A stretch of DNA of 64,000 bases, taken from the NCBI RefSeq assembly GCF_014696825.1, contig NZ_JACJQU010000006.1, forward strand, positions 24,542 through 88,541. The letters are read 5' to 3'. Shown piece by piece: positions 23,665 through 40,634 of the stretch. The DNA is from Anabaena sphaerica FACHB-251 (GTDB lineage Bacteria > Cyanobacteriota > Cyanobacteriia > Cyanobacteriales > Nostocaceae). How positions within the stretch are numbered: position 1 is the first letter of the stretch; every line of letters starts with the position of its first letter. The translations under genes were made by a program, and so were the position numbers. The notes beneath the pieces were generated by a model, which was given only the letters and a program-made list of their open reading frames with translations, did not search any database and was not told the origin of the DNA.

Positions 23665-23942
23665 TTTCTTTTGCTGGTTTAATAGCTTTTGACTTCGCTA
23701 TGTTTGCAGTGAGCTATGTCAGCGATAAACTATGTTTGCAGCTAACACATTTATTTTTAGTCTAAATATAGTCTAATACCAAGCTCTCGTTCCCTGTCTG
23801 AGCCGGGGAATGCCTCAGTTAGAGACTCTGCCTCCGCTGACGACAGTCGAGGTAGAACCTCATCATTTGCATTCCCAGCCAGAGTCTGGGAACGAGAAAA
23901 TTAAGTTTCGCGCAAAGGCGCAGAGGAGTAAAGGCGCAAAGG

Positions 23943-25244
23943 ATGAAAGAACAGCTATTATGGGAATTAGAACAAGTAAATCTGCGTTTGAAGTCTGCAA
24001 AGACCAGAGTAACAATTCGAGAATCTAATGGATGTCTGCAATTACGGGCAACTTTACCCATTAAGCCAGGAGATGAGGATACAAGGGGAACTGGGAAAAA
24101 GCAATACAATCTCAGTTTGAATATTCCCGCAAATTTACCAGGATTGAAAACTGCGGAGGAGGAAGCTTATGAGTTAGGGAAGTTAATTGCTAGAAAAAGT
24201 TTTGTTTGGAATGATAAATATTTAGGAAATGAGGCAATTAAAAAGGATTTACGAACTATTGGTGAGTTATTGGTAAGGTTTGAGGAAGAATATTTTAAAA
24301 CCCATAAACGCACGACTAAAAGTGAACATAGTTTTTTTTATTATTTTTCTCGAATTAAGCGTTATACAAATGCTGATGATTTGGCAAATGGGGAAGTTTT
24401 AATTCAAGCGATTGAGAAAATAGATAAGGAATGGGCTAGATATAATGCTGTGAGGGCTATTTCTGTTTTTTGTCAACTTTTTAAAATTGATATTAATTTA
24501 ACTAGTTATTCTAAAGTTCCTGAAAGTAATTCTCGGAATGTTCCTACTGATAAGGAAATAGTTACTGGATTTTACAAGTTTGATGAATATCTAAATAATC
24601 GCGGTAAACAAGTTAATCAAGATGTGAAAGATAGTTGGCAACTTTGGCGATGGATTTATGGAATGTTAGCGGTTTTTGGTCTACGTCCCAGGGAACTTTT
24701 TGTTAATCCTCATATTGATTGGTGGTTGAGTAATGAAAATACAGATTTAACTTGGAAGGTTGATAAAGATTGTAAAACTGGTGAAAGGGAAGCTTTACCT
24801 TTATATAAGGAATGGATTGATGAATTTGATTTAAGGAATCCGAAGTATTTAGAAATGTTGGTAACAGCAATTAGTAAAAAAGACCAAAATAATCATGCAG
24901 AAATCACGGCTTTAATTCAAAGGGTGAGTTGGTGGTTTAGAAAAATTGGTTTAGATTTTAAACCCTATGATTTACGTCATGGTTGGGCAATTCGAGCGCA
25001 TATTTTGGGAGTTCCTATTAAGGCTGCGGCGGATAATTTGGGTCATAGTGTCCAAATTCATACGAAAACTTATCAACGTTGGTTTTCTTTAGATATGCGG
25101 AAGTTAGCAATAAATCAGGCTTTGAGTAAGCGGAATGAAGTGGATTTGATTAAGGATGAAAATACTGGGTTGAAAATGGAGAATGAACGGTTGAAGATTG
25201 AGGTAGAGAAGTTGAGGATGGAAATGGTTTATAAACGGAGTTAA
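23943..25244 (+). CDS. xisA: XisA-family site-specific tyrosine recombinase (nifD-element excisase)
   Basis: 433 aa, paralogous to the 40635..41990 ORF (LPIKPGD...TAEEEA.ELGKLIARK.FVWNDKYLG; WQLWRWIYGMLA.FGLRP; RHGWAIRAH.LG.PIKAAADNLGHSV). Sits about 280 bp inside the nifK-proximal border. Confidence 0.8.
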   Translation: MKEQLLWELEQVNLRLKSAKTRVTIRESNGCLQLRATLPIKPGDEDTRGTGKKQYNLSLNIPANLPGLKTAEEEAYELGKLIARKSFVWNDKYLGNEAIKKDLRTIGELLVRFEEEYFKTHKRTTKSEHSFFYYFSRIKRYTNADDLANGEVLIQAIEKIDKEWARYNAVRAISVFCQLFKIDINLTSYSKVPESNSRNVPTDKEIVTGFYKFDEYLNNRGKQVNQDVKDSWQLWRWIYGMLAVFGLRPRELFVNPHIDWWLSNENTDLTWKVDKDCKTGEREALPLYKEWIDEFDLRNPKYLEMLVTAISKKDQNNHAEITALIQRVSWWFRKIGLDFKPYDLRHGWAIRAHILGVPIKAAADNLGHSVQIHTKTYQRWFSLDMRKLAINQALSKRNEVDLIKDENTGLKMENERLKIEVEKLRMEMVYKRS

Positions 25245-25260
25245 GTAATGCACCATAACA

Positions 25261-25602
25261 CTATTTAAATGCTTCAATTTGATCCGAATAAACATTAATT
25301 AGCTTGTGATCAATAACTAACATTTCAATCTCTGGACAAACTCTAGCTAGAAATGAGTGAAATTCACGTTTTCGCATATTCCCAAAACGTAGATGCACTA
25401 TTTTAGGTGGAGAAGAATCAACCATCAAGCGATCTGAAAAATCAGCATCTTTAGTAACAATCACCAATTCTTTTTCCTTTGCATACTCCCAGATTTGGGT
25501 ATCACTTGGACTATTCCCTAAAATAGAAACATGAATGACGGGTAAAGATGGAGTAAATTGGACTTTAGTGGGAAGTTTTTCATCAAATAAAAACCCATTC
25601 AT
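25261..25602 (-). CDS. DUF5615 (PIN-like) protein, putative toxin of DUF433/DUF5615 pair
   Basis: Start chosen at MNGFLFDEK so that ATG overlaps stop of upstream DUF433 gene (ATGA-type coupling); ORF track extends to 25659. Confidence 0.55.
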   Translation of the reverse strand: MNGFLFDEKLPTKVQFTPSLPVIHVSILGNSPSDTQIWEYAKEKELVIVTKDADFSDRLMVDSSPPKIVHLRFGNMRKREFHSFLARVCPEIEMLVIDHKLINVYSDQIEAFK

Positions 25603-25823
25603 GCAATTTTTCTCACTTCGTAATGATTCCCCATCAATTTTGCCGCGAATTGGATGCAAGCATAAATATCTTCTCTTTCTAAAGATGGGTATTCTTCTAG
25701 AACTTCTTCGATAGAATCACCTGCACCTAAAAATTCTATAATTGTTTGTACAGAAATTCGAGTGTTTGTAATAACAGGTCTGCCATTGCAAATATCTGGA
25801 TGAATAGTTATTCGCTTTTCCAT
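25599..25823 (-). CDS. DUF433 protein, putative antitoxin
   Basis: 74 aa; ICNGRPVITNTRISVQTIIEFL..G.SIEEVLEEYP.L.REDIYA DUF433 signature. Confidence 0.65.
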   Translation of the reverse strand: MEKRITIHPDICNGRPVITNTRISVQTIIEFLGAGDSIEEVLEEYPSLEREDIYACIQFAAKLMGNHYEVRKIA

Positions 25824-25974
25824 AACGATTTTTCCTTTTTATAGACCTAGTGTTAAGTAGATAACAATAATATTATTTTACATCATTGTTAGCAAATTGT
25901 CATCATTTTTGAATAAAAGTTATTTTTTTCGGATTAAGTTTAGTTAGTGAACAAGAGAAGTTAAGTTGTATTAA

Positions 25975-26069
25975 TAAAGATGGAAATACAGGGTTGGAAA
26001 ATGGAGAATGAAAGGTTGAAGATTGAGGTAGAGAAGTTGAGGATGGAGATGGTTTATAAACGCAGTTAA
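25975..26069 (+). repeat. approx 95-bp duplicate of the xisA 3' end (approx 90% identical to 25150..25244)
   Basis: Direct alignment: ...GGTTGAAGATTGAGGTAGAGAAGTTGAGGATGGA.ATGGTTTATAAACG.AGTTAAG in both. Flanks the DUF433/DUF5615 cassette. Confidence 0.8.
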
Positions 26070-26141
26070 GTTTGGGTAATCAAGAATTTCATTTTTGTGT
26101 GATGTGGTATAATTAGTTTATCAACAATAATCAAAATCTTT

Positions 26142-26400
26142 ATGCAAGCTACTGATATTGGGACACTAATTATTAAATCATCAGACACTTTAGGGGGTCG
26201 TCCTCGGATTGCTGGTACTAGAGTTTCTGTGCAACGAATTACAGCTTGGTACAAAAGTCGAGATACTCCTTCTGGAAACATTTGTCTCCCCAGGTTTTGT
26301 AAATCTGGTATCTCTGGAGGACATTGAATAATGGGATGAGTCAAAGTTAGAATTTGACCTTCACTAAGACATCTCTCCCTGTCTACATGATAGAAAATTG
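26142..26400 (+). pseudogene. Degenerate second DUF433 gene (frameshift after about 50 codons) with decayed downstream partner
   Basis: GGRPRIAGTRVSVQRI is the DUF433 core. Alternative frame continues ...PGFVNLVSLEDIE*, indicating a frameshift. Confidence 0.5.
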
Positions 26401-26534
26401 GCATTTTTATCAATCTTTATCTAAATAATCTTATTAGTATAGCTTGCGTTGTTGCCTAGTACAATATACTATACTAACAAGACTTAGCTAAAATCTAGGA
26501 ATATAATCTACTTTGTGAAATAATATCTTTTGTT

Positions 26535-27053
26535 ATGAGTGATATCAAATCTGGTAGCATCGAATTTCATGATTACCCATCTTTAGAATCAGATGAAGAG
26601 TACAAATTTGAGGTTCTACATTCTGGTCAAGTAATTGGGATTGCTCACGTCAAATGTATGCAGGATCAACAGGGAAAGTTTTGGCATCTAGATAACTTGT
26701 TCGTTCAGATAAAACATCGTAATCATGGATATGGAACTAAATTGCTTAATCATCTTCGCCATTACCTTTGGAGCATGGATAGACTAAGAATTCGAGTTCA
26801 CCCGGCTATTGGACAACAAGCAATGGAGGCGTTAGTCGAGAAATTACAACACAATAAGGAAATATACACTGAGGAAGAACTAGACGCTATGGATAAAGAA
26901 CTGTATCTGGCAATGCAGCAACCTGATTTTTGGCAAAAGCAAGCAGAGATAAGCGAGACTCAAGATAGTAAAGAACTTGTTGAATGGTATCGTAAGCGCG
27001 AATTTACACATGATGACCCGGATGGAAAGCATCTATGGTGTTATTCTGAATAA
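26535..27053 (+). CDS. GNAT-family N-acetyltransferase
   Basis: 172 aa; V..HR..GYGTKLL..L acetyl-CoA-binding motif region. Confidence 0.5.
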   Translation: MSDIKSGSIEFHDYPSLESDEEYKFEVLHSGQVIGIAHVKCMQDQQGKFWHLDNLFVQIKHRNHGYGTKLLNHLRHYLWSMDRLRIRVHPAIGQQAMEALVEKLQHNKEIYTEEELDAMDKELYLAMQQPDFWQKQAEISETQDSKELVEWYRKREFTHDDPDGKHLWCYSE

Positions 27054-27157
27054 AATGTGATCGCATTTCTTCTATATGGGAGTGCGATCAGACTTTCCTA
27101 AATCCCAATACCAAAAAACTGCTTAAATAAAATAAGCTAACCGTTATATGTCAGGAT

Positions 27158-28291
27158 ATGCTAGAAAAAGTAATACTTCATAATTTCAAAAGTCATAAAT
27201 CTACAGAACTTAATTTCGATAGTTCTCGATTACATGGACTCGTAGGAAAAAACAGTGCTGGTAAAACAACTGTTCTACAAGCATTGCATAATCTAAGTAG
27301 GCTTGCTGCTTCACAATTTAAAAATATTTTTCAGTATGATAAATCACCTGAATTTCTCACAACAATGGGGAAAAAAAATATGTCTGTCACTGCTAGTGGT
27401 TTTTGGGGATCTACCAATCGGCAGAATTGGCAAGCTTCTTATAGTTGGAAGCAGCAAAATATTGATTATTGGCATCCAACAGCATCATGGAACATAGATA
27501 AAAAAGAATATAGTTTGGAAGGATGGAAAAAATCATTAAGTGAAGCTCCATATCCAATTCCGCAATCTTTGAAATATGCTGTTTACCTCAAATTAGTTGC
27601 AAGTAATCTTGCCAAAGCAGCTTACAGTGAAGAAATTACGCCAAGAGTTGAGTTTGATGGTTCGTTATTAGCACCAACTTTAGATTTTTTGCGTAATGAA
27701 GCTCCAGATAAATTTCAATTAATAGAAGAAAAATTGAGTCGGATTGTCCCAAATGTACGCAGAATTGGCATCAAGCGAGCAAAAGTTTCAGTCATTCGTA
27801 AACGTTTAATCGAAGTTGATGGTAAGTCTATTTCTTATGATGAAACTCAGGAAATGGCAGGTCAAGAAGTTATATTAGATATGAATACAGGTGAACGTAT
27901 TCCAGCCCATGCAATTAGCGAAGGAACAATGTTAACTTTAGGATTATTAACTGTATTAATGAATCCTAATCAACCTAATTTAGTTTTATTAGATGATGTA
28001 GAACAGGGACTTCATCCTAAAGCACAACGTGAGTTAATGACTGTTTTTAAAGAAATCATTGCTGAAAATCCCAACTTGCAAATTATTTTCTCTACTCATT
28101 CTCCTTATATTATTGATGAACTTGTTCCTTCTCAAGTCCATATATTAAATAACAGTAATTCAGGTTTCACAATTGCCAAACGTTTGGATGAACATCCTGA
28201 TGTAGAATGGGCAAAAGAAACATTAACAACTGGTGAATTTTGGGATGCTGAAGGTGAAGATTGGGTGGTAGAAGGAGAAGTCAGTGATTGA
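27158..28291 (+). CDS. ABC-type AAA ATPase (AAA_21/AAA_15-like; OLD/PARIS AriA-like)
   Basis: 377 aa; Walker A GKNSAGKTT at N-terminus, Walker B LVLLDDVEQGLHP and STHSP H-loop at C-terminus. Stop overlaps start of next gene. Confidence 0.75.
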   Translation: MLEKVILHNFKSHKSTELNFDSSRLHGLVGKNSAGKTTVLQALHNLSRLAASQFKNIFQYDKSPEFLTTMGKKNMSVTASGFWGSTNRQNWQASYSWKQQNIDYWHPTASWNIDKKEYSLEGWKKSLSEAPYPIPQSLKYAVYLKLVASNLAKAAYSEEITPRVEFDGSLLAPTLDFLRNEAPDKFQLIEEKLSRIVPNVRRIGIKRAKVSVIRKRLIEVDGKSISYDETQEMAGQEVILDMNTGERIPAHAISEGTMLTLGLLTVLMNPNQPNLVLLDDVEQGLHPKAQRELMTVFKEIIAENPNLQIIFSTHSPYIIDELVPSQVHILNNSNSGFTIAKRLDEHPDVEWAKETLTTGEFWDAEGEDWVVEGEVSD

Positions 28292-29060
28292 GTTTATTGT
28301 CATAGTTGAAAGTGGTGCAGATGCCAGAACAGCGACTAAATTAGCCGAGCGCGTTTTAAAGGAAAAATTCGATTGGTTAGATGATGATATTCTGCAACAT
28401 TGTTTTCAGTGGACTGGTTTAGAGGAAGGGACAGAATTTTCTTGCTGGAGAGACATTATAAAAATAATTGATGATGCAAAATCACAAATAAAATATAAAC
28501 CTTCCAGATTTTTAGGACATGATAGTAAGGGTGTACCCTTGAAAGCTGATGGAGCAGCATCTATCAAGATTCTTAATTTGGTAAGGTTTCTGCAAAAAAC
28601 TCGACAGATTAAAGCTGTTATATTTATCCGTGATTTAGATAATCAACCGGAACGTAAAGAAGGAATTGAACAAGCACGTTCAGAACATATTAATAAAACC
28701 TCGAAATTAGAAATTGTCATTGGTGCGGCTGATCCAAAACGTGAAGCATGGGTTTTAAATGGCTTTATTCCCTTTAATCAACAAGAGGAACAAATTCTAG
28801 AAGAAATCAAAAATAAATTGAGTTTTGATCCTTGCATAGAGTCTCACAGATTACGTGCTACTTCAGAGAAAGAACCTGAACGAATGAGAAATGTAAAAGT
28901 AGTAGTTGAACAGCTAACAGGAAACGATATGGAACGGGAAAAGCAGTGTTGGGAAGATACAGATTTAAAACATCTACGAGAAAGGGGAGTTGATACGGGT
29001 TTAACAGATTATATTCAAGAAGTTGAGGAACGATTAGCTGCAATTATTTTGTCTGATTAA
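28284..29060 (+). CDS. TOPRIM-like small partner protein (OLD C-terminal/AriB/DUF4276-like candidate nuclease)
   Basis: 258 aa; N-terminal beta-strand plus Glu (IVIVESG) and later DxD (AVIFIRDLDN), the catalytic layout of TOPRIM. 8-bp overlap with ATPase gene. Confidence 0.45.
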   Translation: MIEFIVIVESGADARTATKLAERVLKEKFDWLDDDILQHCFQWTGLEEGTEFSCWRDIIKIIDDAKSQIKYKPSRFLGHDSKGVPLKADGAASIKILNLVRFLQKTRQIKAVIFIRDLDNQPERKEGIEQARSEHINKTSKLEIVIGAADPKREAWVLNGFIPFNQQEEQILEEIKNKLSFDPCIESHRLRATSEKEPERMRNVKVVVEQLTGNDMEREKQCWEDTDLKHLRERGVDTGLTDYIQEVEERLAAIILSD

Positions 29061-29147
29061 ACTGAGTAAAAGCTATTATAAAATGATACAACATATCAAA
29101 ATTATCAAATCTCTAGGAAATAGTAGGTTACTAATTTTTAATTGGTA

Positions 29148-29552
29148 TTAACCTTTATTCCCAGCCCAAAGAATAGCAGTATCTTGATACTCTTTAAACA
29201 TTGAATCCGCTGTCACCAGAATCATACTTTCCATCTGTGCTTGTGCAATGAGCATTCTGTCAAAAGGATCTCCATGATGCAAAGGTAAAGCCACCGTTCT
29301 GAGTGCATGGGAAGCTGTAATTTCCAAAGATTTCGCCCCCAATTTCATCATGCGGCTAGAAATGTAACTATCCAGTGGTTCTGGTAATGGTAACTTACCA
29401 ATTGCAACTTTTATCCCCATTTCCCACACACTAGCAACAGAAAACCATAGTTCATTGCTTTCATCAGCAATATGTGCGATCGCCTCTTCATGCAAACGCT
29501 CAGGTTCAGCAAACCACCATAAAAAACACTGTGTATCCAGTAAAAGCTTCAC
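29148..29552 (-). CDS. vapC: PIN-domain ribonuclease toxin VapC
   Basis: 134 aa; MKLLLDTQ... PIN acidic residues; 4-bp overlap with upstream antitoxin. Confidence 0.8.
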   Translation of the reverse strand: MKLLLDTQCFLWWFAEPERLHEEAIAHIADESNELWFSVASVWEMGIKVAIGKLPLPEPLDSYISSRMMKLGAKSLEITASHALRTVALPLHHGDPFDRMLIAQAQMESMILVTADSMFKEYQDTAILWAGNKG

Positions 29553-29794
29553 TCCTCATTCCCCTCAAACGCTGCTAAAATGTCCTCTGCTAAAGGTGCA
29601 TTAAAGTCTTCTGGAATTACAAATTTTCCTCGATCTTGTCCTAAACTATCCCGTCGTTGAGACGAGACACTAAACGGAACTAATTTAGCGATGGGAATAC
29701 CCCGGTTACAAATAATGATTTCTTCCCCATGTTCTACACGGGATAATAGACGTGAAAGATTCGTTTTAGCTTGATGGATATTTACGGTTTCCAC
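29549..29794 (-). CDS. Phd/YefM-type antitoxin
   Basis: 81 aa; METVNIHQAKTNLSRLL..V..GEEIIICNRG.P.AKLVP. Confidence 0.7.
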   Translation of the reverse strand: METVNIHQAKTNLSRLLSRVEHGEEIIICNRGIPIAKLVPFSVSSQRRDSLGQDRGKFVIPEDFNAPLAEDILAAFEGNEE

Positions 29795-30097
29795 AGGTTT
29801 TTAGCTAAGTCTACAAACTTAGTTTACTTTGATTCTCAGATTTTGGCAAGAATTAAAAAGTTACGATCAACACTAACTTATCTTAACTCTGTAGCGATCG
29901 CCTATTACTGGTAAATTTCTGTAAATGTTACACTGTAGGCGATCGCATTTTAATCGAAATCATGGCAGACATATCTTTTACTGACAAAAGCAACATCTCT
30001 GAAATCATTAATTACTTTAACGTTGTTTCCGAAATCATCTCATTTATCAGTGTATATATAGTGTATCCAGTAATTATCAACCATTTAACAGGAAACT

Positions 30098-30496
30098 ATG
30101 CAAAATTTTTTTCAAAAGTTACTCCAATTGCCATCTGGTGAATGGAATCAAATACAAAAAGAAGCACTAATTGATTTGTGTCTTTTGGGAATGTACTCAG
30201 ATGACAGGATTTCACTAGCTGAACAAGATTTTATTGAAGATGAATATACACAACTAAAGTGGGAATCTGGAATCTCATTTAGTGGATATTTGCAGAGAAC
30301 AATTCCCAAAATTAGAAGTGTGAAAAATAATTCTCAAAAAACAAACGAGTTACTTCAGGATATCGCTAACCGCTTGCAAGATGATAAATTAAAATCCCAG
30401 GCTGTTGCTGAACTAGAAAAGCTTTTATCTACTGATGGAATTATAAATTTAGAAGAAAAATTTCTCAGTAAAGTCAAAACAGTTATGGGTATTTAA
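30098..30496 (+). CDS. Hypothetical protein, TerB-like (132 aa)
   Basis: Weak resemblance to TerB/DjlA N-terminal domain; intact ORF. Confidence 0.35.
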   Translation: MQNFFQKLLQLPSGEWNQIQKEALIDLCLLGMYSDDRISLAEQDFIEDEYTQLKWESGISFSGYLQRTIPKIRSVKNNSQKTNELLQDIANRLQDDKLKSQAVAELEKLLSTDGIINLEEKFLSKVKTVMGI

Positions 30497-30645
30497 CCCT
30501 GTGCTACATCTACACATTTGACAATATGCTACATTTAGAATGGGATAGTAAAAAAGTCACAAAGCTACAGTTTAGGTTCTATCTACCTAACTGGTGCGCC
30601 AAACCATAGTATGAGCGTATACCGCCGAGTGCTTTAAACTATATC

Positions 30646-30725
30646 GTTTGATTAGCTCAGTTGGTAGAGCAGTTGACTCTTAATTGATCAATGCGTCACA
30701 GGTTCGACTCCTGTATCAAACCCCA
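30646..30725 (+). tRNA. tRNA-like gene 1 (perfect acceptor and D/T arms, enlarged/aberrant anticodon region, CCA encoded)
   Basis: GTTTGAT-TA-GCTCAGTTGGTAGAGC ... ACAGGTTCGACTCCTGT-ATCAAAC-C-CCA. Anticodon arm cannot be folded canonically (about 4 extra nt). Confidence 0.45.
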
Positions 30726-30800
30726 GGAAGTTAGCTCAATTGGTAGAGCAGTTGACTATTAATCAACCTGTAGCAGGTTCGATTCCTGCACTTTCAACCA
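30725..30800 (+). tRNA. tRNA-like gene 2 (76 nt cloverleaf, anticodon loop CTATTAA, A1:A72 mismatch, CCA encoded)
   Basis: AGGAAGT-TA-GCTCAATTGGTAGAGC-A-GTTGA-CTATTAA-TCAAC-CTGTA-GCAGGTTCGATTCCTGC-ACTTTCA-A-CCA. Unusual anticodon AUU. Confidence 0.45.
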
Positions 30801-31198
30801 ACCCTGTCCGGGTTACAGGACACTACTTATGGGAAGTAGCAAGTGGCAAAGGAGAAATCCTGCGGTTCAACTCCGCAATTATCACCAACTCTGCGGTGCA
30901 AGTATTTTGCTTGTCTTCATTACTCGCAAGAGTAACGTTTGCAAGCAGCAGTTAATGAGTTCGCGCAACTGCATTCCTCCCTAACTTGAGTATATCCTTC
31001 AACTTGCCAATGGCAAAACAAAGTTTATTTGCCAAAAGCAAAATGAACGGTATATTTGATGGTTGTTCTTTAATTGAGTAGCTACGGAGCAGCTTAGTTA
31101 AAATTACATCTATCTTCATCCAGTTTTTGAGTAGCTTTTGCCCACCCAACGACTGTAACACTTACTTGCATTTGCAGAGTTTCTAAAAATTTTGTATT

Positions 31199-32803
31199 AT
31201 GGCATATTACAAAAAGCTAGAATCAATATCAAAATTAGTCACTAACTTACTAAAAAATATCCTCCAAAATACTATTATGTGGAAAAACTTTTACATTAAA
31301 CCTAACGAAATTGGCATTTTATATCACCGCAGCGACTTTAAGAAAGTTTTACAACCTGGTGAATATACTTATTTTGGTCGTCATTGGCTAGTTAAAACTT
31401 ATGACCTCAATGAAGCAGAAGCGGATATTGAAAACCTAGAATTATTGTTGCGAAATCATGGAACAGAACTAGAACAATATCTACTAATTGTTAAAACTAC
31501 ATTTAACGAAGCTGCTTTAGTCCGTTTGGGTCAGAATTGGATAAGTATTGCTCCTAATCAATTACGGGCTTTTTGGCGAGGTTTTATAGAAGTAGAATTC
31601 CATCTTTTCAACTTAGAAGAAAACTGGGAATTGCCTAATTCTTTTGTCCAGCAATTGCGATCATTTGCGTTAAATGGACTGAAGAAATTCCAAATCTTTG
31701 AGTATGAGATTGGTTTACTATATGTACAAAATAATTTTACCCGACCTCTAGAACCAGGAGAGTATGCCTTTTGGTCAATAGATAAGACAGTAGCGGTGCG
31801 GAGTATTAGCCGGATTGTCCCTAACCCCGATTTTCCTCTAGAAGATATACTAATTGAAAAACATCCTGATTTTGTTGCTGCTTACTGTGAAATTGTGGAA
31901 TTACTGCCTTCGCAAGTTGCAATTGTGCGCTATCGAGGTAAGGTAATTTCTATTTTACCACCCACAAGCCGCAAACTATTTTGGCAAGGTGTGGCAGTGG
32001 AAATTATTGATATTAGCACAGATGCAAAATTATCACCTGCATTAATTTCTGAATTGGTGGAAGGAACAGCAGAAGTAAAAACACTGAGTCGAAACTATTT
32101 ACATATTTGTCAAGTTCCTCCCCAACATATTGGACTATTATATATTAATCAGGAATTTCAAACACAATTACAACCAGGATTAAATGCTTGGTGGTCATTT
32201 GGACGTTCTTGGCAAACGGAAACTATTGATTTGCGATTGCAAAACATGGAAGTTTCCGGTCAAGAAATCCTCTCTAAAGACAAAGTACCTTTGCGGTTAA
32301 ATTTAACTGCTGGTTTTCGCATTCAAGACCCATTAAAAGCAAAAAATGGGTTATCAGATATTACTGGATTCTTGTACAAAGAGTTGCAATTTGCTTTGCG
32401 TGGTGCAGTGGGTGAACGGACTTTAGATGCTTTGTTAGAAGATAAAGGCGCAATTGATAGCAGTATCTCTGAATATATTCGTCAAAAAGCCGCAGACTAT
32501 GGAATTGAAGTTGATTCTGTAGGTGTGAAAGATATTATTTTACCTGGAGAAATTAAGGCAATTTTGAGTAAGGTTGTTGAAGCTGAAAAAGCTGCTCAAG
32601 CAAATGTTGTCAGACGTAGAGAAGAGACTGCTGCCACTCGGAGTATGTTAAATACTGCGAAGGTGATGGAAGATAATCCGGTGGCGTTGCGGTTGAAGGA
32701 ATTGGAAGTTTTAGAACGTATTGCGGAGAAGATTGATCGGATTCAGGTAAATGGTAGTTTGGATAGTATTTTGACAGATTTGATTCGCATGAATCCGCAG
32801 TGA
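31199..32803 (+). CDS. SPFH/Band-7 (flotillin/slipin-like) domain protein with triplicated N-terminal module
   Basis: 534 aa; three repeats of a PGEY.FW...W motif block, then C-terminal SPFH region (GVKDIILPGEIKAILSKVVEAEKAAQANVVRRREETAA...). Confidence 0.6.
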   Translation: MAYYKKLESISKLVTNLLKNILQNTIMWKNFYIKPNEIGILYHRSDFKKVLQPGEYTYFGRHWLVKTYDLNEAEADIENLELLLRNHGTELEQYLLIVKTTFNEAALVRLGQNWISIAPNQLRAFWRGFIEVEFHLFNLEENWELPNSFVQQLRSFALNGLKKFQIFEYEIGLLYVQNNFTRPLEPGEYAFWSIDKTVAVRSISRIVPNPDFPLEDILIEKHPDFVAAYCEIVELLPSQVAIVRYRGKVISILPPTSRKLFWQGVAVEIIDISTDAKLSPALISELVEGTAEVKTLSRNYLHICQVPPQHIGLLYINQEFQTQLQPGLNAWWSFGRSWQTETIDLRLQNMEVSGQEILSKDKVPLRLNLTAGFRIQDPLKAKNGLSDITGFLYKELQFALRGAVGERTLDALLEDKGAIDSSISEYIRQKAADYGIEVDSVGVKDIILPGEIKAILSKVVEAEKAAQANVVRRREETAATRSMLNTAKVMEDNPVALRLKELEVLERIAEKIDRIQVNGSLDSILTDLIRMNPQ

Positions 32804-32922
32804 TAATATCAATCTTGTAGAGTGCGTCAGACAAATAACCTAGTAATAAGATGATTAACTTCTAATCTGACGCACCCTACTTGATTTACTTACACAATTT
32901 CTGTATAATAATATAGTTTGCA

Positions 32923-33738
32923 TTGGAAAATATAGCTTTGGATATTACCACAGAATTAAGAAATACAGAAAATTCTTTAAGAGATCTATACACTTACATC
33001 CTCTCTAACAAATTTGGTGAGGAATGGCATTTAAAGTGTGGAGTTAGTAGTGACCGAATAGATAAATGGAAAGCTCGAAAAGATTTAGAACATAAAAATT
33101 TCGGTTATAGCGATCCACGATTGATTTATTACGCTGATTTTTATGATCTAAAAACAATTCTTAAACACAATTGGCAACACGACTTATCCAAAGTATTTGG
33201 CAAATTGAAGGAACTAGAGGTTTTATTAGATATCCTAGAGGAATTAAGAAACCCTGATGCTCATAGAAGAAACTTACTCCCATACCAAAAATATTTAGCT
33301 ATGGGTATTAGCGGTAAAATTAGAACAGAAATTACAGGATATTTTAGTAAAATGGAAACTGGCGAATCATATTATCCAAGAATTGAATGTGTACAAGATA
33401 GCCTTGGAAATTCATGGGCAATAGGTGAGCAAAATACCCTATTTACAAATGAAGTGCTTAGACCAGGCAATGAAATTCAGTTTAATGTATCTGCTACAGA
33501 TCCTCTTGGTGAAACAATAGAGTTTACTGTTATGCCTGTATCATCCCCATGGGAATTTGAATGGAAAGAAAATGGCGATTTTTCACTTGTAATAAAAAAA
33601 CAATACGTGGGAAAAATTTTCTGGATTTGTATAGCAGTGCGATCCAAAAGGGAGTTTCATGCAATGTCTGAAGTTGGCCTAGGTTCAGTAGATGATACCG
33701 TTAAATTTGGATATGAAGTTCTCCCTCCTAAAAGATAA
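32923..33738 (+). CDS. HEPN-domain protein (Swt1-like; Rx4H motif RNPDAH)
   Basis: 271 aa; LEELRNPDAHRR matches the HEPN R-x4-6-H catalytic motif; very AT-rich. Confidence 0.5.
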   Translation: MENIALDITTELRNTENSLRDLYTYILSNKFGEEWHLKCGVSSDRIDKWKARKDLEHKNFGYSDPRLIYYADFYDLKTILKHNWQHDLSKVFGKLKELEVLLDILEELRNPDAHRRNLLPYQKYLAMGISGKIRTEITGYFSKMETGESYYPRIECVQDSLGNSWAIGEQNTLFTNEVLRPGNEIQFNVSATDPLGETIEFTVMPVSSPWEFEWKENGDFSLVIKKQYVGKIFWICIAVRSKREFHAMSEVGLGSVDDTVKFGYEVLPPKR

Positions 33739-33746
33739 TACTAACA

Positions 33747-34499
33747 ATGCTAGAAGATTATTTTGTTAAATTAGTAGTTCTTTTCTGCTGGCTAATATTT
33801 CCTATTTTATGGTATTGTTATAGGATTGATTTTTTTCTAAATATTTCAATTTGGTGGAAGAAAAAAGATGAAAAAGATGTTGTTCTACCTGCCTGCATTT
33901 TTTTTATACTTCCTTTTGCAATTCTAATAACTTATCAGAACTTTTATGAACTCATAACAAATTTCCACAAAGATGATGTTACCAGCAAAGTATTGGAAAC
34001 TTCTTTCAAGCTAATTCCGATAGCAGCAATAGGAGCATATTTTGTGGATAAAATCAAGAAAAATGAAGAAATTCAACTATCAAGAGATATCTTATCTCAT
34101 GAGTTATTTCAAAACTATCTTGCTACTCGAAATACTATATTTCTCTTGAAGATGTCTAAATCACCAGGCGGAAATGTCTCAGGAAATCCAATCAAAGATT
34201 TCCAGACTTTATGGTCTAACAGAGCATATGATAATAGTCGAAATTCAATTATTAGGATGAAAGGAAATATCTATGGAAGCTTAAGTGAACTTTACCAAAG
34301 TGCTAGTTTGATTATCAACAAATATACTGGTGATGATAGTTGTATTTCTTATTCTTCTGCATTTGAGAATCAAGAATTTGTATTTCGACTAGACTTGTTA
34401 ATTAATGATATTTACAACAACTTGATTTTACTAGATAACAAGTCAGAAATTGGATTATTGACACGGCGAGAGGTAGAACAGATGAAAGTAGAAAAATAA
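33747..34499 (+). CDS. Membrane protein (2-4 N-terminal TM helices) of unknown function, adjacent to HEPN gene
   Basis: 250 aa, hydrophobic N-terminus, very low GC; 9-bp gap from HEPN gene. Confidence 0.4.
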   Translation: MLEDYFVKLVVLFCWLIFPILWYCYRIDFFLNISIWWKKKDEKDVVLPACIFFILPFAILITYQNFYELITNFHKDDVTSKVLETSFKLIPIAAIGAYFVDKIKKNEEIQLSRDILSHELFQNYLATRNTIFLLKMSKSPGGNVSGNPIKDFQTLWSNRAYDNSRNSIIRMKGNIYGSLSELYQSASLIINKYTGDDSCISYSSAFENQEFVFRLDLLINDIYNNLILLDNKSEIGLLTRREVEQMKVEK

Positions 34500-34597
34500 T
34501 GCAAAGTTTAAACATCAATCAAACCATAACCGATTGGTCATCAATATGGATATTTTTGGAAGTTGCTATAATCAAAACAAACCTGAAAAATCCTGAT

Positions 34598-35180
34598 ATG
34601 ATAGCCATTCCCCAACAACCGCAAAAAATGACCATTGAGGAATATCTTACATGGGAACTTGACCAGGATATTCGCTATGAATACATCAACGGCGAAGTTT
34701 TCGCCATCACTGGTGGTACAATTCCCCACAATGATATTGCTCTAAATCTTTACAGACCTCTATATTCTCATCTCCGTCCTAGAGGTTGTCGAGTTAATGT
34801 GTCAGAGGTGAAAGTACAAGTTACCCCTAAAAGCCCATACTTCTATCCTGATCTTATCGTTAGTTGTCACCCTGATGACCTCAACGCCCGCAAATTTATT
34901 CAAAATCCTAAATTAATCGTTGAAGTTCTTTCCCCTGGTACAAGTGGTAAAGATAGAGGTGAAAAATTCAGATATTATTTATTTAACAATGCCCAGTTTG
35001 CAAGAATACATCTTGATTGATTCTGAAAAAATATCTGTTGAACGTTACTGTCGGGGAGAAGGACGAATGTGGCTTTATTATCCTTACACTACTGGAGACA
35101 TCATCACTTTATCAAGTGTTGAATTTGAATTTCCGATTGAAATGCTTTATGATGGTGTTGGGTTGGAAACTGAAGAATAA
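34598..35180 (+). pseudogene. Uma2-family (DUF820) putative restriction-endonuclease-like gene with frameshift
   Basis: MTIEEYLTWELDQDIRYEYINGE...SPGTSGKDRGEKFRYY in one frame. Continues ...LQEYILIDSEKISVERYCRGEGRMWLYYPY...FEFPIEMLYDGV in another frame (shift near 34975-35000). Confidence 0.6.
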
Positions 35181-35248
35181 CACTACAATTAACATACTTT
35201 ATCAAATAAATCTTACTGTAAAATAAAATTTAGTGACTTATTACGATT

Positions 35249-35827
35249 ATGGCAAAACGTAAAAAAAGCAATTTTCAGTGGATTAAAGAAACTCTGGAAT
35301 TAAAGCCAGATCATCATTGGGAATCTCCCCCAGAATATAATATTTTTGTAGCAGGTAGAGGGGCTGTGCGGTTTAATGTTCCTCGCGGTTGGATATCGGA
35401 ACCACAGGAAAAATCATTTAAGTTCATGGATAAAAAACCACCTGATGATGATTGTTGTTTAGAGGTATCGTACAATCATTTACCACCTAATGATTGGACT
35501 TTATTTCCCCTCAAATCAACTTTGAAGAAAATCATGGAAGATGATAGCCGTGATGTAATTGAAAGGGGAGAAGTGATTACTGTCAAGCGGCAAACTGCGC
35601 GGATTATGTGGTGCGAAATTAAGTTTATTGACACTCAAGCCGAACCCAGGGAGGCTTTTTCACGGACTTGTGTTGGTTTAGGTTCTAATATTCAGTGTTT
35701 GATTACCTTTGATTATTGGGCAGATCAAGCAGAGCAATTAATACCTGTTTGGGATGAAGTTATGCGTAGTTTAACATTGGGATTATATATTCGTGATCCT
35801 AGAACTGGTTTAGCTTTCCCTGATTGA
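35249..35827 (+). CDS. Hypothetical protein (192 aa)
   Basis: Intact ORF, no recognisable motif. Confidence 0.35.
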   Translation: MAKRKKSNFQWIKETLELKPDHHWESPPEYNIFVAGRGAVRFNVPRGWISEPQEKSFKFMDKKPPDDDCCLEVSYNHLPPNDWTLFPLKSTLKKIMEDDSRDVIERGEVITVKRQTARIMWCEIKFIDTQAEPREAFSRTCVGLGSNIQCLITFDYWADQAEQLIPVWDEVMRSLTLGLYIRDPRTGLAFPD

Positions 35828-35982
35828 AATGCCGAGAAAACAACCTAAGCTTGAGTTTCTTCATCACAAGTGGAAATTGTTAGTTTGAAAAGTTGTGGAT
35901 TTTAGTCAACATTATGTTCAAGATTTTGGGTAAACTGGAAGCGACAAAACAACCCATTGCACAGATTAGTAATTTAATATTC

Positions 35983-36498
35983 ATGACAAATCCCACCGCA
36001 ACTCTGGAAACGTCTCTTGGTACTATTACTCTTGAGCTATTCACCGACGTTATGCCCATAACGGCTGGAAACTTCATCAAATTGGCTAAAAGTGGCTTTT
36101 ATGATGGTCTGCATTTCCACCGTGTGATTAAAAACTTCATGGTGCAGTTTGGTTGTCCTCACAGTAAAGATCCTAGCTCTCCTCGTGCAGGGACAGGTAA
36201 TGGTCCTGATGGGTGCATTCAAGATGAGCATCCCGCAGATGGGAAAATTTCCAATGAACCAGGAACTCTATCTATGGCTAATACGGGGGCCCCTAATAGT
36301 GGGAGTTGCCAGTTTTTCATCAACACTGTTCACAACTCCTATTTAGATTGGTTTACACCCGGTCCATCCAAGCATCCTGTTTTTGGTCGAGTTACTGAAG
36401 GTATGGATGTATTGAAAGCCATTGAAACCACTCCAACGGGACAAGGCGATCGCCCAAAAACTCCAGTTAAAATGATCAAAGTTACCATTCACGAATAA
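35983..36498 (+). CDS. Peptidyl-prolyl cis-trans isomerase, cyclophilin type
   Basis: Cyclophilin signatures ([40 protein letters not shown]); start set at MTNPTATLE. Confidence 0.85.
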
Positions 36499-36689
36499 AC
36501 TAAAGGATTGGTGCGGAGAAACCCTCCGCACACCGCTATCTTCAGGCAACATCCCCTCTTTCTCATTAAAAGATAAAATTGGGTTAATCAAACCCAACAC
36601 AATTTGATTTCAGATTTCATTAAATTGTGTATGGATCAATATTTAATTTCCTCAATATCTTCATGCTTTTGAAGTTGCTTCACCCCAGA

Positions 36690-36860
36690 TAGAACGCCAG
36701 TTAGCATTTCGAGATTACATGATTGCTCATTCTGAAAACGCACAGAAATACAGTGATCTCAAACGTGAACTTGCAAAAAAGTATCCTGATAATATTGAGA
36801 GCTACATGGATGGAAAAGACTGGTTGATTATAGATAGAAAAGCAGCAGAGTGGAGAAAAA
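36690..36860 (+). pseudogene. Fragment of GrpB-family (UPF0157) gene, C-terminal 50 codons only
   Basis: RDYMIAHSENAQKYSDLKRELAKKYPDNIESYMDGKDWLI matches GrpB C-termini; no upstream ORF. Confidence 0.45.
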
Positions 36861-37632
36861 TATGCTAGGAGCGATCGCAGGTGATATTATTGGCTCATTG
36901 TATGAAATTAATAATATTAAAACTAAGGATTTTCTTCTTTTAAACCCCGATAGTATTTTTACAGATGATACAGTTTTAACAGTAGCAGTAGCCGATAAAC
37001 TTCTAGATCATAGCGACTATGAAGAAATATTTAAATCCTATTATCATCGCTATTCAGCTAGAGGCTATGGCAAAAGTTTTCATCGGTGGGCTAAAGGTGA
37101 AATTGTCGGAGCTTATAATAGTTATGGCAACGGTTCAGCCATGAGAGTAAGTCCTGTTGGCTATGCTTTTGATAATTTAGAACAAGTATTAGCAGAAGCA
37201 AAAATTAGTGCAGAAATAACTCATAACCATCCTGAAGGCATCAAAGGAGCGCAAGCAGTAGCAGCAATTATTTTTTTAGCACGAACAGGTACAAGCCGAG
37301 AAGAAATTAAATCATATACTGAAACTAATTTTGGTTATGAGTTGAATCAAAGTTTAGATGAAATTCGCCCTACTTATAAGTTTGATGTTAGTTGTCAGGG
37401 AAGTGTACCCCAAGCAATTATCGCTTTTTTAGAATCAACAGATTTTGAAGATGCAATTAGAAATGCTATTTCCATTGGTGGTGATAGTGATACAATTTCT
37501 TGTATCACAGGAGGAATTGCCGAAGCCTTTTATGGAAGTGTGCCGACATTTATAGCAGAATATGCTATTTCTAAAATCACAAAACATCTTTATGGAACCA
37601 TAGAGAAATTTCAAAAAAAATACTGTAATTAA
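36850..37632 (+). CDS. ADP-ribosylglycohydrolase family protein (ARH/DraG fold)
   Basis: 260 aa; N-terminal GAIAGDIIGS, TDDT, C-terminal GGDSDT metal-binding motifs characteristic of the ADP-ribosylglycohydrolase family. Confidence 0.7.
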   Translation: MEKNMLGAIAGDIIGSLYEINNIKTKDFLLLNPDSIFTDDTVLTVAVADKLLDHSDYEEIFKSYYHRYSARGYGKSFHRWAKGEIVGAYNSYGNGSAMRVSPVGYAFDNLEQVLAEAKISAEITHNHPEGIKGAQAVAAIIFLARTGTSREEIKSYTETNFGYELNQSLDEIRPTYKFDVSCQGSVPQAIIAFLESTDFEDAIRNAISIGGDSDTISCITGGIAEAFYGSVPTFIAEYAISKITKHLYGTIEKFQKKYCN

Positions 37633-37636
37633 AGCA

Positions 37637-38002
37637 ATGCAAAAATGGTTTCGCTATTCCCTATTAGCAACTGCAATTATGAACTTGGCCGGAGCAGTCA
37701 TATTTGCACTACCGATTTATGGTAAGGGTGATGTCTTCGGGTTGCCGAATGCTCACCCACTGTATCTTTGGATTATATCTTCTTGGATTCTCATCTTTGG
37801 TGTAGCCTATTTTTGGTTGGCACTTACGGCAAAGCCAGAGCGTTTATACATTGCAGTAGTAGCAGCTTGTAAATTAGCGATCGCTTTTATTTTCTTTGCC
37901 TTTTGGATGACAGGTGATTTACCATTTATAACTGCATCTGCTGGAGGTGGAGATTTCTTTTTTGCAATCATCTTCATCTATTGGCTTTTTCAGAGGCGGT
38001 GA
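37637..38002 (+). CDS. Small membrane protein (121 aa, 3-4 TM helices)
   Basis: Hydrophobic ORF. Confidence 0.4.
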   Translation: MQKWFRYSLLATAIMNLAGAVIFALPIYGKGDVFGLPNAHPLYLWIISSWILIFGVAYFWLALTAKPERLYIAVVAACKLAIAFIFFAFWMTGDLPFITASAGGGDFFFAIIFIYWLFQRR

Positions 38003-38151
38003 ACTCTAGATTTTGTGGCGTTGCTGATTTTAGGGATGAAAATAATTTTGCATACGTTCAAGACCTTTGTAGAGACGTTCCATGGAACGTCTCTACCTCC
38101 AAAAATCATACCCTAATTCAGCAACGCCGATTTTGTTAGCTCCCTCTATAT

Positions 38152-38253
38152 TAGACATAGTAGTGAAAATTAAATGTGCGTGGTTTGAAATCCTTGTAGA
38201 GACGTTCCTCATGTAGGGATTCTCGGCTCTACAATCTTTACCGGAGATGTCTA
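38152..38253. mobile_element. MITE copy (diverged left TIR), TA-flanked, near nifD-element border; plus solo 28-bp palindrome GTAGAGACGTTCCATGGAACGTCTCTAC at 38060..38087
   Basis: Shares AAATGTGCGTGGTTTGAAA.CCTTGTAGAGACGTTCC and CCGGAGATGTC-TA end with copies at 11247 and 56851. Confidence 0.6.
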
Positions 38254-38489
38254 TTTAGTCTAAGAACCAACCAGATAAAAAAGTTTTTCTATTTAACATT
38301 TTTGATTTAAGCCAAATTTAAGCCAAATCTCAAAACTAGACTCAATCTGAGTTATACTCTATGCAGTATCAAACAAACATTGTTACTCACAAACATAATC
38401 AATTTAATTTAGGCTAAAAATTAACTTCTCTTAATTCCACCACCAAAAAACCTGAAGTTAACGCACCTTTCAACCAACATTACTAGGTT

Positions 38490-39997: not shown

Positions 39998-40480
<483 letters not shown>

Positions 40481-40634
40481 TTAACAGCCGGAAAATGTTT
40501 ATTTTCTACAATGTTTGCTGCAATCATTGTTTTGAGTAAACAGTTTTTTTATTAGGGTAAATCTAGGGTATTTATATTATTAAAAATCAAGGACGCATTT
40601 GCCAATTTTATATAAATAATTGGATTGAGGCAGA

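Follow-up and report, generated by a model that had tools for sequence, protein, structure and literature searches.

We consider it rather probable that two overlapping genes, ORF A and ORF B, found in the nifD interruption element of the window (the whole 64,000-nt stretch of DNA analysed) form a divergent HEC-01/AbiL/PARIS-like module of an ATPase sensor and a TOPRIM effector, i.e., an autonomous, coupled two-gene conflict module carried as nifD-element cargo. [quoted passage not shown] The initial annotation had described a 377-aa and a 258-aa ORF with an 8-bp overlap, and both ORFs were recovered on the + strand at exactly the same coordinates:

27158..28291, + strand: ORF A, 377 aa, ATG start, ABC-type ATPase (AAA_21/AAA_15)
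28272..28277, + strand: AAGGAG Shine-Dalgarno of ORF B, within the 3' end of ORF A (read from sequence)
28284..28291, + strand: A/B overlap of 8 nt, GTGATTGA, with the B start codon and the A stop codon (translational coupling)
28284..29060, + strand: ORF B, 258 aa, GTG start, TOPRIM-like putative metal-dependent nuclease of an uncatalogued family

Direct reading of the sequence gives a spacing of 6 nt between AAGGAG and the GTG of ORF B. Both ORFs are conserved over their full length in 80 genomes; of the 80 cyanobacterial loci, 73 keep both the pairing and an RTGNNTGA overlap of identical geometry (the 80 related loci were gathered with a shallow alignment, and the set is skewed to cyanobacteria). 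Because of this full-length conservation and the shared 8-nt overlap, we took A and B to be genuine genes, not ORFs arising by chance. The pairing is still present in relatives of about 35% identity, distant relatives show A/B overlaps of 4-11 nt, and decayed copies occur occasionally (loci L012, L028, and L063). A promoter and terminator scan was uninformative.

ORF A carries the motifs of an ABC ATPase, interrupted by a variable segment. Invariance in the list below refers to a set of 72 homologs, which includes five at 29-36% identity to ORF A:

27245..27268, + strand: Walker A/P-loop GKNSAGKT, residues 30-37 (K36); G30, N32, G35, and K36 invariant
27278..27601, + strand: hypervariable insert, residues ~41-148, putative sensor/specificity region (identity profile of 67 homologs)
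27914..27928, + strand: ABC signature ISEGT, residues 253-257; S254, E255, and G256 invariant
27980..28003, + strand: Walker B LVLLDDVE, residues 275-282, then LHP; L285 and H286 invariant
28091..28102, + strand: H-loop STHS, residues 312-315; H314 invariant

The order of motifs, with Walker A near the N-terminus and the signature, Walker B and H-loop in the C-terminal part, agrees with the split ABC layout read earlier, and so do the Pfam scores, which lie above gathering for AAA_21 (3.1e-28, 100.2 bits, cutoff 27; residues 25-320 on profile positions 1-304, the whole profile) and for AAA_15 (6.9e-25, 88.9 bits, cutoff 32.1). An AbiEii type IV toxin was rejected as a reading of ORF A, the AAA_21 Pfam name being a naming artefact and an AbiEi-like partner being absent. 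Among PADLOC models, the best match is HEC-01A (PDLC04182, 1.4e-32); a second HEC-01A model (PDLC04175, 3.5e-30) is matched over its full length, residues 2-364 on profile positions 6-355 of 363. The AriA models follow at 1.1e-29 and 2.6e-26, behind HEC-01A and at a level similar to that of many defence ATPases of the AAA_15/21 type. PDC-M25A, mad3, AbiLi (3.1e-20), and PtuA are matched as well, and the closest solved structures are PtuA and an OLD nuclease. ORF A also matches the SMC_N, RecF, and Rad50 N-terminal models, as would be expected if the pair served RecF/SMC/SbcCD-type DNA repair or chromosome maintenance and had no conflict role, with B being TOPRIM-like in fold alone or no nuclease. 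We regard such a role as very unlikely: these matches are confined to residues 1-55, the generic N-terminal P-loop part, and the models matched over the full length are those of defence ATPases.

The insert of ORF A is sharply set off from its surroundings. Across 67 homologs the mean pairwise identity is 0.13-0.53 in the insert vs. 0.71-0.96 in the remainder of the protein. The segment is a mosaic, with 16-56% identity to relatives that are otherwise 90-100% identical and 61-100% identity to Nostoc alleles. At least 6 allele groups were found among 20 elements, and the insert is uncoupled from the phylogeny of B (rho 0.08). We concluded that the insert recombines and swaps alleles, with sharp boundaries. 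A variable insertion (IS1) in the PARIS ATPase has been proposed as the trigger recogniser (PMC11464382); the insert of A most likely recognises a trigger, e.g., a phage or mobile-element protein. A delimited insert with allele swapping offers a natural experiment on the evolution of trigger specificity. Such hypervariability is atypical of a housekeeping repair protein.

ORF B has no place in current catalogues. Direct scans gave no Pfam, PADLOC, or NCBIfam match even at E <= 10, and the Pfam comparison proposed initially for the 258-aa protein (DUF4435, DUF4276, and OLD TOPRIM) came back empty. The family is nonetheless large (1084 representatives at 50% identity, unannotated); since its members go unrecognised by the models of Pfam, NCBIfam, and PADLOC, the family escapes current defence-system finders. 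Three conserved motifs were located, with conservation and profile counts resting on 132 relatives:

28296..28322, + strand: TOPRIM motif 1, beta1 IVIV, then E9 and D13; E9 invariant, D13 at least 90% conserved
28626..28643, + strand: TOPRIM motif 2, IRDLDN, D117-x-D119; D117 invariant, D119 at least 90% conserved
28740..28754, + strand: REAWV, with candidate third acidic metal ligand E154; E154 and W156 invariant

B was said to open with a beta-strand and a Glu, with a DxD about 110 residues on. This description proved accurate: the N-terminus reads MIEFIVIVES (E9), and IRDLDN lies at residues 115-120, placing the strongly conserved D117 and D119 108 residues past E9. An AlphaFold2 (AF2) model built from the 132 sequences (a model from 20 close homologs was unusable, with pLDDT 49) shows, around motif 1, a strand spanning residues 2-8 followed by a helix that starts at residue 11, and a further strand at 109-117 that runs into D117. 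The Glu ending beta1 and the DxD after beta3 that mark a TOPRIM domain are present as E9 and D117/D119. E154, which comes after the next strand (143-149), may parallel AriB E122 (PMC11464382).

Sub-threshold matches of the B relatives fall almost solely on TOPRIM-type families and on PADLOC HEC-01B and PDC-M25B. HEC-01B is the model most often matched, weakly, by 29/132 relatives (best 3.7e-7). Below the Pfam gathering thresholds, RloB was matched by 13 relatives (best 4.1e-5; 12-13 bits in the cases examined vs. a cutoff of 31.5), DUF3226 by 5, DUF4276 by 3 (best 0.016), Toprim by 2, and the OLD-like TOPRIM family PF20469 by 1 (0.051). The TOPRIM-family matches, though below threshold, are collinear with B: the motif 1 region of one relative aligns where the profiles of OLD-like TOPRIM and DUF3226 begin, and RloB matches span motif 2. 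Other searches added little. Foldseek of the B model against PDB and BFVD gave noise alone (best E 0.028), the B-family HMM found nothing meaningful among PDB sequences, hhalign between the B family and P2 Old, represented by one sequence, gave no match (unsurprising at this sensitivity), and tblastn of B against plasmid and phage collections gave no match. We concluded that B is probably a divergent TOPRIM-like, two-metal nuclease whose candidate ligands are E9/D13, D117/D119, and E154. The initial reading as a TOPRIM nuclease is thus upheld by the Glu/DxD signature and the weak TOPRIM matches of relatives, and does not extend to a family match for B itself. That B matches no curated nuclease model, that an uncharacterised archaeal protein is its closest match in structure and that the pair stands among housekeeping genes in distant bacteria would suit a repair function. 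Against it, the invariant or near-invariant acidic quintet (E9, D13, D117, D119, and E154) points to catalysis, and a patchy distribution, residence in an excisable element and the decayed copies are uncharacteristic of housekeeping repair.

The preferred reading, a conflict module, draws on likenesses to several known systems, each of them incomplete. HEC-01, the PADLOC "Hma-embedded candidate 01", pairs the ABC ATPase HEC-01A with the TOPRIM protein HEC-01B (Payne et al., bioRxiv 10.1101/2024.01.29.577857) and, like A-B, consists of two genes with the TOPRIM-like protein separate. ORF A matches the HEC-01A model, but the window's B matches 0 PADLOC families at E <= 1. Because B is unmatched and the 29 matching relatives match weakly, we take the relationship as distant homology, not membership, and PADLOC would not call the A-B system, since B matches no HEC-01B model. 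HEC-01 is also defined by its embedding in Hma systems, whereas A-B is found by itself or within a nifD element. When assayed, HEC-01 conferred no defence, and E. coli was not protected by it, so that the likeness offers no proven function to carry over. AbiL, which joins the AbiLi ATPase to AbiLii (Pfam RloB), and RloA-RloB share with A-B the bicistronic arrangement of an AAA_15/21 ATPase followed by a TOPRIM-superfamily protein of ~200-260 aa. RloB is the Pfam family that B relatives match most often, and ORF A also resembles AbiLi. However, neither B nor the relatives examined reach the gathering score of RloB (PF13707), and the PADLOC AbiLii model found no match among the 132 relatives. 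B further differs in the ~45 residues inserted after motif 1, ahead of the DxD, and in a C-terminal helical half (residues ~160-258) outside the reach of the AbiL/RloB profiles.

PARIS (AriA ABC ATPase plus AriB, a DUF4435 TOPRIM protein) likewise keeps ATPase and TOPRIM in separate genes, and the five acidic residues of B follow the pattern of AriB E26, D30, D88, E90, and E122 (PMC11464382). The spacing from motif 1 to the DxD is 58 residues in AriB vs. 104 in B, and PARIS is typically a passenger of phages or P4-like satellites, while the phage and plasmid collections contained no relative of B. Membership in PARIS was rejected, as no DUF4435/AriB similarity was detected in B, nor, among the families listed, in its 132 relatives. 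Membership in MADS Mad3-Mad4 or the AAA plus DUF4276 modules was rejected too: ORF A scores 71 bits against NCBIfam MAD3 (cutoff 420), and DUF4276 appears in few relatives, at poor E values. PARIS and AAA plus DUF4276, both named as candidates initially, therefore lack their defining partner features here. In OLD proteins (P2 Old, class 1; Gabija GajA, class 2) the two domains are fused in one polypeptide; A-B is split in two genes, and with the solitary PF20469 match and the negative hhalign comparison, membership in fused OLD was set aside. Overall, the two-gene ATPase/TOPRIM-like architecture proposed in the initial annotation survives, while assignment to PARIS, DUF4276, or fused OLD does not.

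From these comparisons we infer nuclease activity, sequestration and release of B, and a defence or abortive phenotype for the module. B would be a toxic effector that A holds inactive in a complex, on the model of PARIS and of the TOPRIM toxins that AAA ATPases neutralise. Binding of a trigger by the insert of A, or a change in the nucleotide state of A, would free or activate B, and active B may then cleave nucleic acid, tRNA or DNA, resulting in cell arrest.

The pair had been placed inside a nifD element flanked by GNAT and VapBC genes, and all the parts were located in the window:

21766-23391, - strand: nifK, flank of the element
23658-23664 and 38490-38496: TACTCCG repeats, bounds of the element
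from 23664, - strand: nifD C-terminal remnant, where the reading frame resumes
23665..38489: nifD interruption element carrying the pair, ~14.8 kb, TACTCCG repeats at both ends
23943-25244, + strand: xisA (XisA tyrosine recombinase), nifK-proximal end, opposite in orientation to nifD
26535-27053: GNAT gene, flank of the pair
29148-29794, - strand: Phd/PIN genes, flank of the pair
38470-39852, - strand: nifD N-part, 460-aa ORF ending at the repeat

The claim of very low GC was overstated, the content being 0.348 in the pair and 0.358 in the element vs. 0.387 in the remaining window. With a site near nt 1355, the TACTCCG direct repeat and a nifK-proximal XisA on the opposite strand, the element belongs to the "nifD 1355" variant, as does the A. 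cylindrica PCC 7122 element (15.19 kb, TACTCCG, GC 0.35; Hilton et al., 2016, PMC4874684, Table B). Besides A-B, it holds two TA pairs. The cargo of this element and the neighbouring nifH element comprises TA, HEPN, and RM genes. Hilton et al. (2016) (PMC4874684, Table C) listed an "ATPase found exclusively in elements" in six nifD-1355 elements and named neither a function nor a partner gene for it. ORF A is this ATPase: Tol9009DRAFT_00060800 of Scytonema hofmanni UTEX 2349, which adjoins xisA (…60810), corresponds to our locus L017 and is 88% identical to A. The ATPase was said to be absent outside elements (PMC4874684), whereas we found it widespread outside, in non-heterocystous cyanobacteria and other bacteria. 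The partner gene B and the defence-type identity of the ATPase are new relative to that work.

In heterocyst-forming cyanobacteria the pair is a long-standing nifD-element cargo beside xisA, and elsewhere it is a stand-alone chromosomal module. xisA lies 0.1-4.7 kb upstream of the pair in 22/25 Nostocales loci vs. 3/37 loci elsewhere; in many Nostoc elements the distance is as small as 92-420 bp, in the same orientation. A ~5.4 kb nifD element with little beyond xisA, A, and B still keeps the pair, and XisA, B, and the core of A co-diverge (rho 0.5-0.6). Such linkage would be expected if A-B were mainly a TA-like addiction or stabilisation module of the element, with B as stable toxin and A as neutraliser. 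Vegetative cells losing the element by premature XisA excision would die, to the benefit of the element and not of host phage resistance. The two further TA pairs on the same element fit this scheme, and so do the AAA-neutralised RloB/TOPRIM_OLD toxins (NetFlax D29:D44), pairs that act as TA in experimental neutralisation assays (PMC10440598). The nifD element can be lost without growth cost in the laboratory (PMC4874684), so that something else must explain its persistence. A mainly addictive role is nevertheless unlikely in our judgement, as the pair is common outside xisA elements (34/37 loci in non-heterocystous cyanobacteria) and among housekeeping genes of other bacteria, many nifD elements without it persist, that of PCC 7120 included, and a hypervariable sensor-like insert is unexpected in a plain addiction module. 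Defence and addiction can coexist.

The close, co-oriented linkage to xisA could also mean that the pair aids developmental rearrangement, as an accessory to XisA excision or in processing the excised circle in heterocysts; some recombination systems do use nucleases and ATPases. In the PCC 7120 nifD element, however, xisA alone is enough for excision, and excision is normal in nifD elements that lack the pair. Moreover, A-B is widespread where xisA, nif genes, and heterocysts are absent, and in one strain (locus L004) it sits in another nifD element variant with a different integrase. An excision accessory was therefore rejected, and we hold any such role to be extremely improbable.

For the conflict module that we prefer, a stronger version is possible, if doubtful: A-B would be a working system of phage defence or abortive infection whose sensor insert is swapped as a cassette and which is inherited together with xisA in nifD elements across Nostocales, heterocyst interruption elements would be domesticated defence/addiction islands, and B would found a new TOPRIM effector family of at least 1000 clusters at 50% identity. 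[quoted passage not shown] Elements of the nifD type sit in genes that need repair in every heterocyst, and what heterocystous cyanobacteria gain from them has been debated ever since they were discovered. A-B gives nifD-element cargo a concrete, testable candidate function; should the pair act against cyanophages or keep the element in place, the persistence of nifD elements would be partly explained, and the combined TA/HEPN/RM and A-B cargo would, if the stronger version is true, supply a selective reason for this decades-old puzzle.

The two reading frames and their overlap were exactly as the initial annotation had placed them, and its reading of the ATPase, with Walker A near the N-terminus and Walker B and H-loop towards the C-terminus, was borne out.

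Genes and motifs of the A-B pair
27158..28291, plus strand: ORF A, ATPase, 377 aa, ATG start
28284..29060, plus strand: ORF B, putative nuclease, 258 aa, GTG start
A residues 30-37: Walker A, GKNSAGKT
A residues 253-257: ABC signature, ISEGT
A residues 275-282: Walker B, LVLLDDVE
A residues 312-315: H-loop, STHS

The frames share 8 nt, GTGATTGA, and a Shine-Dalgarno sequence (AAGGAG) lies within the 3' end of ORF A, 6 nt before the GTG of B. A matched Pfam AAA_21 end-to-end over the profile (100 bits) and AAA_15 (89 bits), and its sequence makes it a firm member of these ABC ATPases, the layout first proposed. K36, S254-E255-G256, H286 and H314 are unchanged in 72 homologs, five of them just 29-36% identical. 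The top PADLOC model was HEC-01A (1.4e-32; full-length match 3.5e-30); AriA was matched at 1.1e-29, and PDC-M07A, PDC-M25A, mad3, PtuA, AbiLi, NsnB and Old were also among the best models. The NCBIfam equivalogs MAD3 and PtuA were matched, but far under their cutoffs. The solved structures nearest by sequence are PtuA (Septu and retron systems) and a Thermus OLD nuclease.

B itself gave no match in Pfam, PADLOC or NCBIfam. Despite these blank scans it is not an orphan: it has 528 matches in a 90%-clustered collection, all labelled "hypothetical" and lacking Pfam domains (UniRef names one of them "DUF4276 family protein"), and an exhaustive profile search gave 1084 representatives at 50% identity (745 at E <= 1e-10), nearly all full-length at about 250 aa. 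The predicted opening strand and Glu (N-terminus MIEFIVIVES) and the later DxD (IRDLDN, residues 115-120) are both present. Across 132 aligned diverse members (identity to B 32-65%), E9, D117, E154 and W156 are invariant, and conservation reaches 90% or more at further positions that include D13, R23, D119 and R124. The confident AlphaFold2 model from this alignment (pLDDT 96.6, pTM 0.93) places E9 after strand 2-8, D117 at the end of strand 109-117 and E154 after strand 143-149. When the 132 relatives were scanned singly, Pfam gave RloB in 13 (best 4.1e-5), DUF3226 in 5, DUF4276 in 3, Toprim in 2 and OLD-like TOPRIM in 1, together with the unrelated GGDEF_2 in 3; RloB and DUF4276 are Toprim-superfamily members (PMC12065111). 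Of the families named for checking, DUF4435, DUF4276 and OLD TOPRIM, B itself matched none, and its relatives matched the last two weakly. PADLOC gave HEC-01B in 29, PDC-M25B in 24 and PDC-M31B in 6, the first two being partner genes of systems also matched by A. In the cases examined the weak matches were collinear, the OLD-like TOPRIM and DUF3226 profiles beginning at the beta1-Glu region and the middle of RloB coinciding with the DxD region. From motifs, modelled secondary structure and weak profiles, B is very probably a divergent member of the TOPRIM superfamily that retains an intact metal-binding signature; the proposed nuclease signature stands to that extent, with no curated family for B itself.

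The pattern E9-x3-D13 ... D117-x-D119 ... E154 repeats that of E26, D30, D88, E90 and E122 in AriB of PARIS, reported as a two-metal site (PMC11464382), with about 45 more residues in B between motifs one and two. By analogy, the pair would work like the OLD/PARIS/AbiL/HEC-01 kind. A-B does not qualify as PARIS (B lacks DUF4435), MADS3-4 (no DUF4276, MAD3 far under cutoff), fused OLD (the two genes are separate), AbiL (RloB under threshold) and, strictly taken, HEC-01 (HEC-01B model unmatched by B). The initial "PARIS/OLD-like" label holds for the kind of module and fails for PARIS, DUF4276 and fused-OLD membership, and its alternative, a variant or undescribed member, agrees with the absence of any fitting named system and with the uncatalogued effector family. 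We concluded that the observation is confirmed and its interpretation partly supported: A-B is best described as a known kind of module in variant form, with an uncatalogued effector family.

B directly follows an A homolog (56-94% identical) in essentially all adequately long loci among 80 drawn from different species of cyanobacteria. The 8-nt overlap RTGNNTGA occurs in 73 of the 80; GTG is the usual B start codon in Nostocales and ATG that of the others. Distant B members (~35-42% identical; metagenomes and non-cyanobacterial genomes) likewise lie behind an ATPase gene of the AAA_15/AAA_21 kind (344-410 aa) that overlaps them. An MmeI-type methyltransferase/restriction gene adjoins one of these pairs, and others are two-gene insertions amid housekeeping genes. 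This pairing, kept at such divergence and in varied surroundings, indicates that A-B is an autonomous, ancient two-gene unit. Neither 72,556 plasmids nor 50,697 phage genomes gave a tblastn match to B. Decayed A copies (residues 299-377 in L012, 7766-8754; 1-89 in L028, 6479-7497; 201-353 in L063, 3306-4600), with B truncated at the N-terminus in L012 and L028, indicate that erosion occasionally removes the module. In a distant lineage (L081, 3910-9343; L082, 1130-6563; B 35% identical) a third overlapping gene, 1206 aa and without Pfam match, follows A-B and may represent a three-gene variant. At L089 (1-1504) the gene that overlaps the start of a distant B relative is cut off by the contig end. 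Its precomputed Pfam matches are Sigma54_activat and AAA_5, not AAA_15/21, and it resembles A in no more than its final 30 residues; here another ATPase class may have taken the place of A.

The placement of the pair within a nifD element was upheld by nifK, the split nifD, xisA and the 7-bp core TACTCCG at both borders (23658-23664 and 38490-38496; longer border sequence GGATTACTCCG at 38490-38500).

The nifD element (about 14.8 kb) and its flanks
21766-23391, minus strand: nifK
from 23664, minus strand: nifD C-terminal frame resumes
23943-25244: xisA (XisA recombinase)
25261-25823, minus strand: DUF433/DUF5615 pair
26535-27053: GNAT gene (Pfam)
29148-29794, minus strand: Phd/PIN pair (Pfam)
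31199-32803: SPFH/band 7 cargo, recorded as shared by nifD elements (Hilton et al., PMC4874684)
32923-33738: Swt1-like HEPN cargo, PDC-M34B-like
34499-35020: Uma2 nuclease cargo, PDC-S03-like
35893-36498: cyclophilin cargo
36850-37632: ADP-ribosylglycohydrolase cargo
38470-39852, minus strand: nifD N-terminal 460 codons

The GNAT and Phd/PIN genes correspond to the flanking GNAT and VapBC genes first noted; "very low GC" was an overstatement, the pair at 0.348 and the element at 0.358 comparing with 0.387 in the remainder of the window. Element ORFs at 30098-30496, 33747-34499, 35249-35827 and 37637-38002 had no family match. Forty residues of the XisA C-terminus recur at 25947-26066 (plus strand), ~700 bp past xisA, with 77.5% identity to residues 394-433. 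This duplicate brackets the DUF433/DUF5615 pair and resembles a scar left when a cassette entered the 3' end of xisA; at 26142-26327 there is also a DUF433-like fragment.

A second gene of the window, nifH, is split by an element of ~8.3 kb (39998-49163).

The nifH element
39998-40414, minus strand: nifH C-part
40635-41990: XisA-like tyrosine recombinase (integrase), 48% identical to XisA
42051-43778, minus strand: 575-aa ORF without family match
45312-48422, minus strand: full-length Type IIG restriction-methyltransferase (PADLOC REase_MTase_IIG 5.9e-192; Pfam Type_ISP_C, ISP_coupler, N6_Mtase)
48723-49163, minus strand: nifH N-part

Both elements therefore bear defence-type cargo. The restriction-modification gene here and the further conflict-type genes of the nifD element (DUF433/DUF5615, Phd/PIN, Swt1-like HEPN, Uma2) support a conflict role for A-B.

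Of the 25 Nostocales-named loci whose upstream sequence reaches 5 kb or more, 22 have a XisA gene (78-95% identical) in the same orientation as A, 92-4702 bp before it, and nifK lies farther out. The complete Richelia sinica element measures just ~5.4 kb and consists of xisA, A and B plus two small ORFs. Hilton et al. 2016 described an "ATPase" common to six nifD-1355 elements, "found exclusively in elements", without proposed function (PMC4874684); because their entry Tol9009DRAFT_00060800, beside xisA, is our locus L017, this ATPase is the ortholog of ORF A. B is absent from their listing; the element of PCC 7120 is without this ATPase (PMC4874684). Our literature search found no paper linking nifD-element genes to defence systems. 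XisA, B and the A core agree in their pairwise identities (Spearman 0.51-0.60), consistent with their inheritance together inside the element. A role of A-B in assisting XisA excision, which this association might suggest, is unlikely since the pair is abundant without xisA (xisA lies upstream in only 3 of 37 loci of other cyanobacteria, including Microcoleus, Coleofasciculus, Kamptonema and Phormidium, those 3 being MAG contigs that also bear nifK) and elements without A-B excise normally. In Dolichospermum sp. UHCC 0259 (L004, 1353-9511), A-B and the same Phd/PIN pair lie behind nifD residues 1-309 on the same strand, beside an integrase only 50% identical to XisA; these genes appear to occupy a different element variant (insertion near nt ~900) in opposite orientation relative to nifD, which suggests cargo exchange between variants. 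A MAG labelled Leptolyngbyaceae (L032, 1157-16759) carries nifK, xisA (80%), A-B and the nifD N-part in nifD-element order; as the family is non-heterocystous, either the contig was mis-binned or this nifD element belongs to a lineage other than Nostocales.

A is a mosaic: residues ~31-148 are just 16-56% identical to its closest relatives (L001, L002 and L004) and 61-100% identical to Nostoc and Scytonema alleles, the remaining sequence being 90-100% identical to those relatives. Across 67 cyanobacterial homologs (370 to 402 aa), mean pairwise identity is 0.13-0.18 at residues 101-140, 0.39-0.53 at 41-100 and 0.71-0.96 elsewhere. Insert and B identities are uncoupled (rho 0.08), and at least 6 insert allele groups occur among 20 element copies, four of them inside one B group at least 85% identical. 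The window allele (27248-27601) groups with Nostoc/Scytonema and the rest of A, B and XisA with Dolichospermum/Anabaena, which is evidence of a recent cassette exchange limited to about 350 nt. The position right after Walker A is that of insert regions proposed as trigger-specificity determinants in defence ABC ATPases (PMC11464382), and the insert is the strongest indirect evidence pointing to a module in an arms race.

In PARIS an AriA hexamer sequesters AriB, which a trigger frees to dimerize and cleave tRNA (PMC11464382), and RloB/TOPRIM_OLD toxins are neutralised by AAA ATPases (PMC10440598). By analogy, A oligomers would keep B inactive, the insert would sense an invader-derived trigger, and freed or activated B would cut a nucleic acid and cause cell arrest; the conserved translational coupling would set the A:B stoichiometry. 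The named candidate nearest to A-B, HEC-01, did not protect E. coli from the phages tried (Payne et al., bioRxiv 10.1101/2024.01.29.577857). A serious rival is that A-B serves the nifD element as a TA-like addiction module, which is compatible with defence. Three features stand out against the familiar architecture of A-B: the large, unannotated B family, a sensor insert that resembles a cassette, and a close link to xisA in nifD elements that had been under-appreciated.
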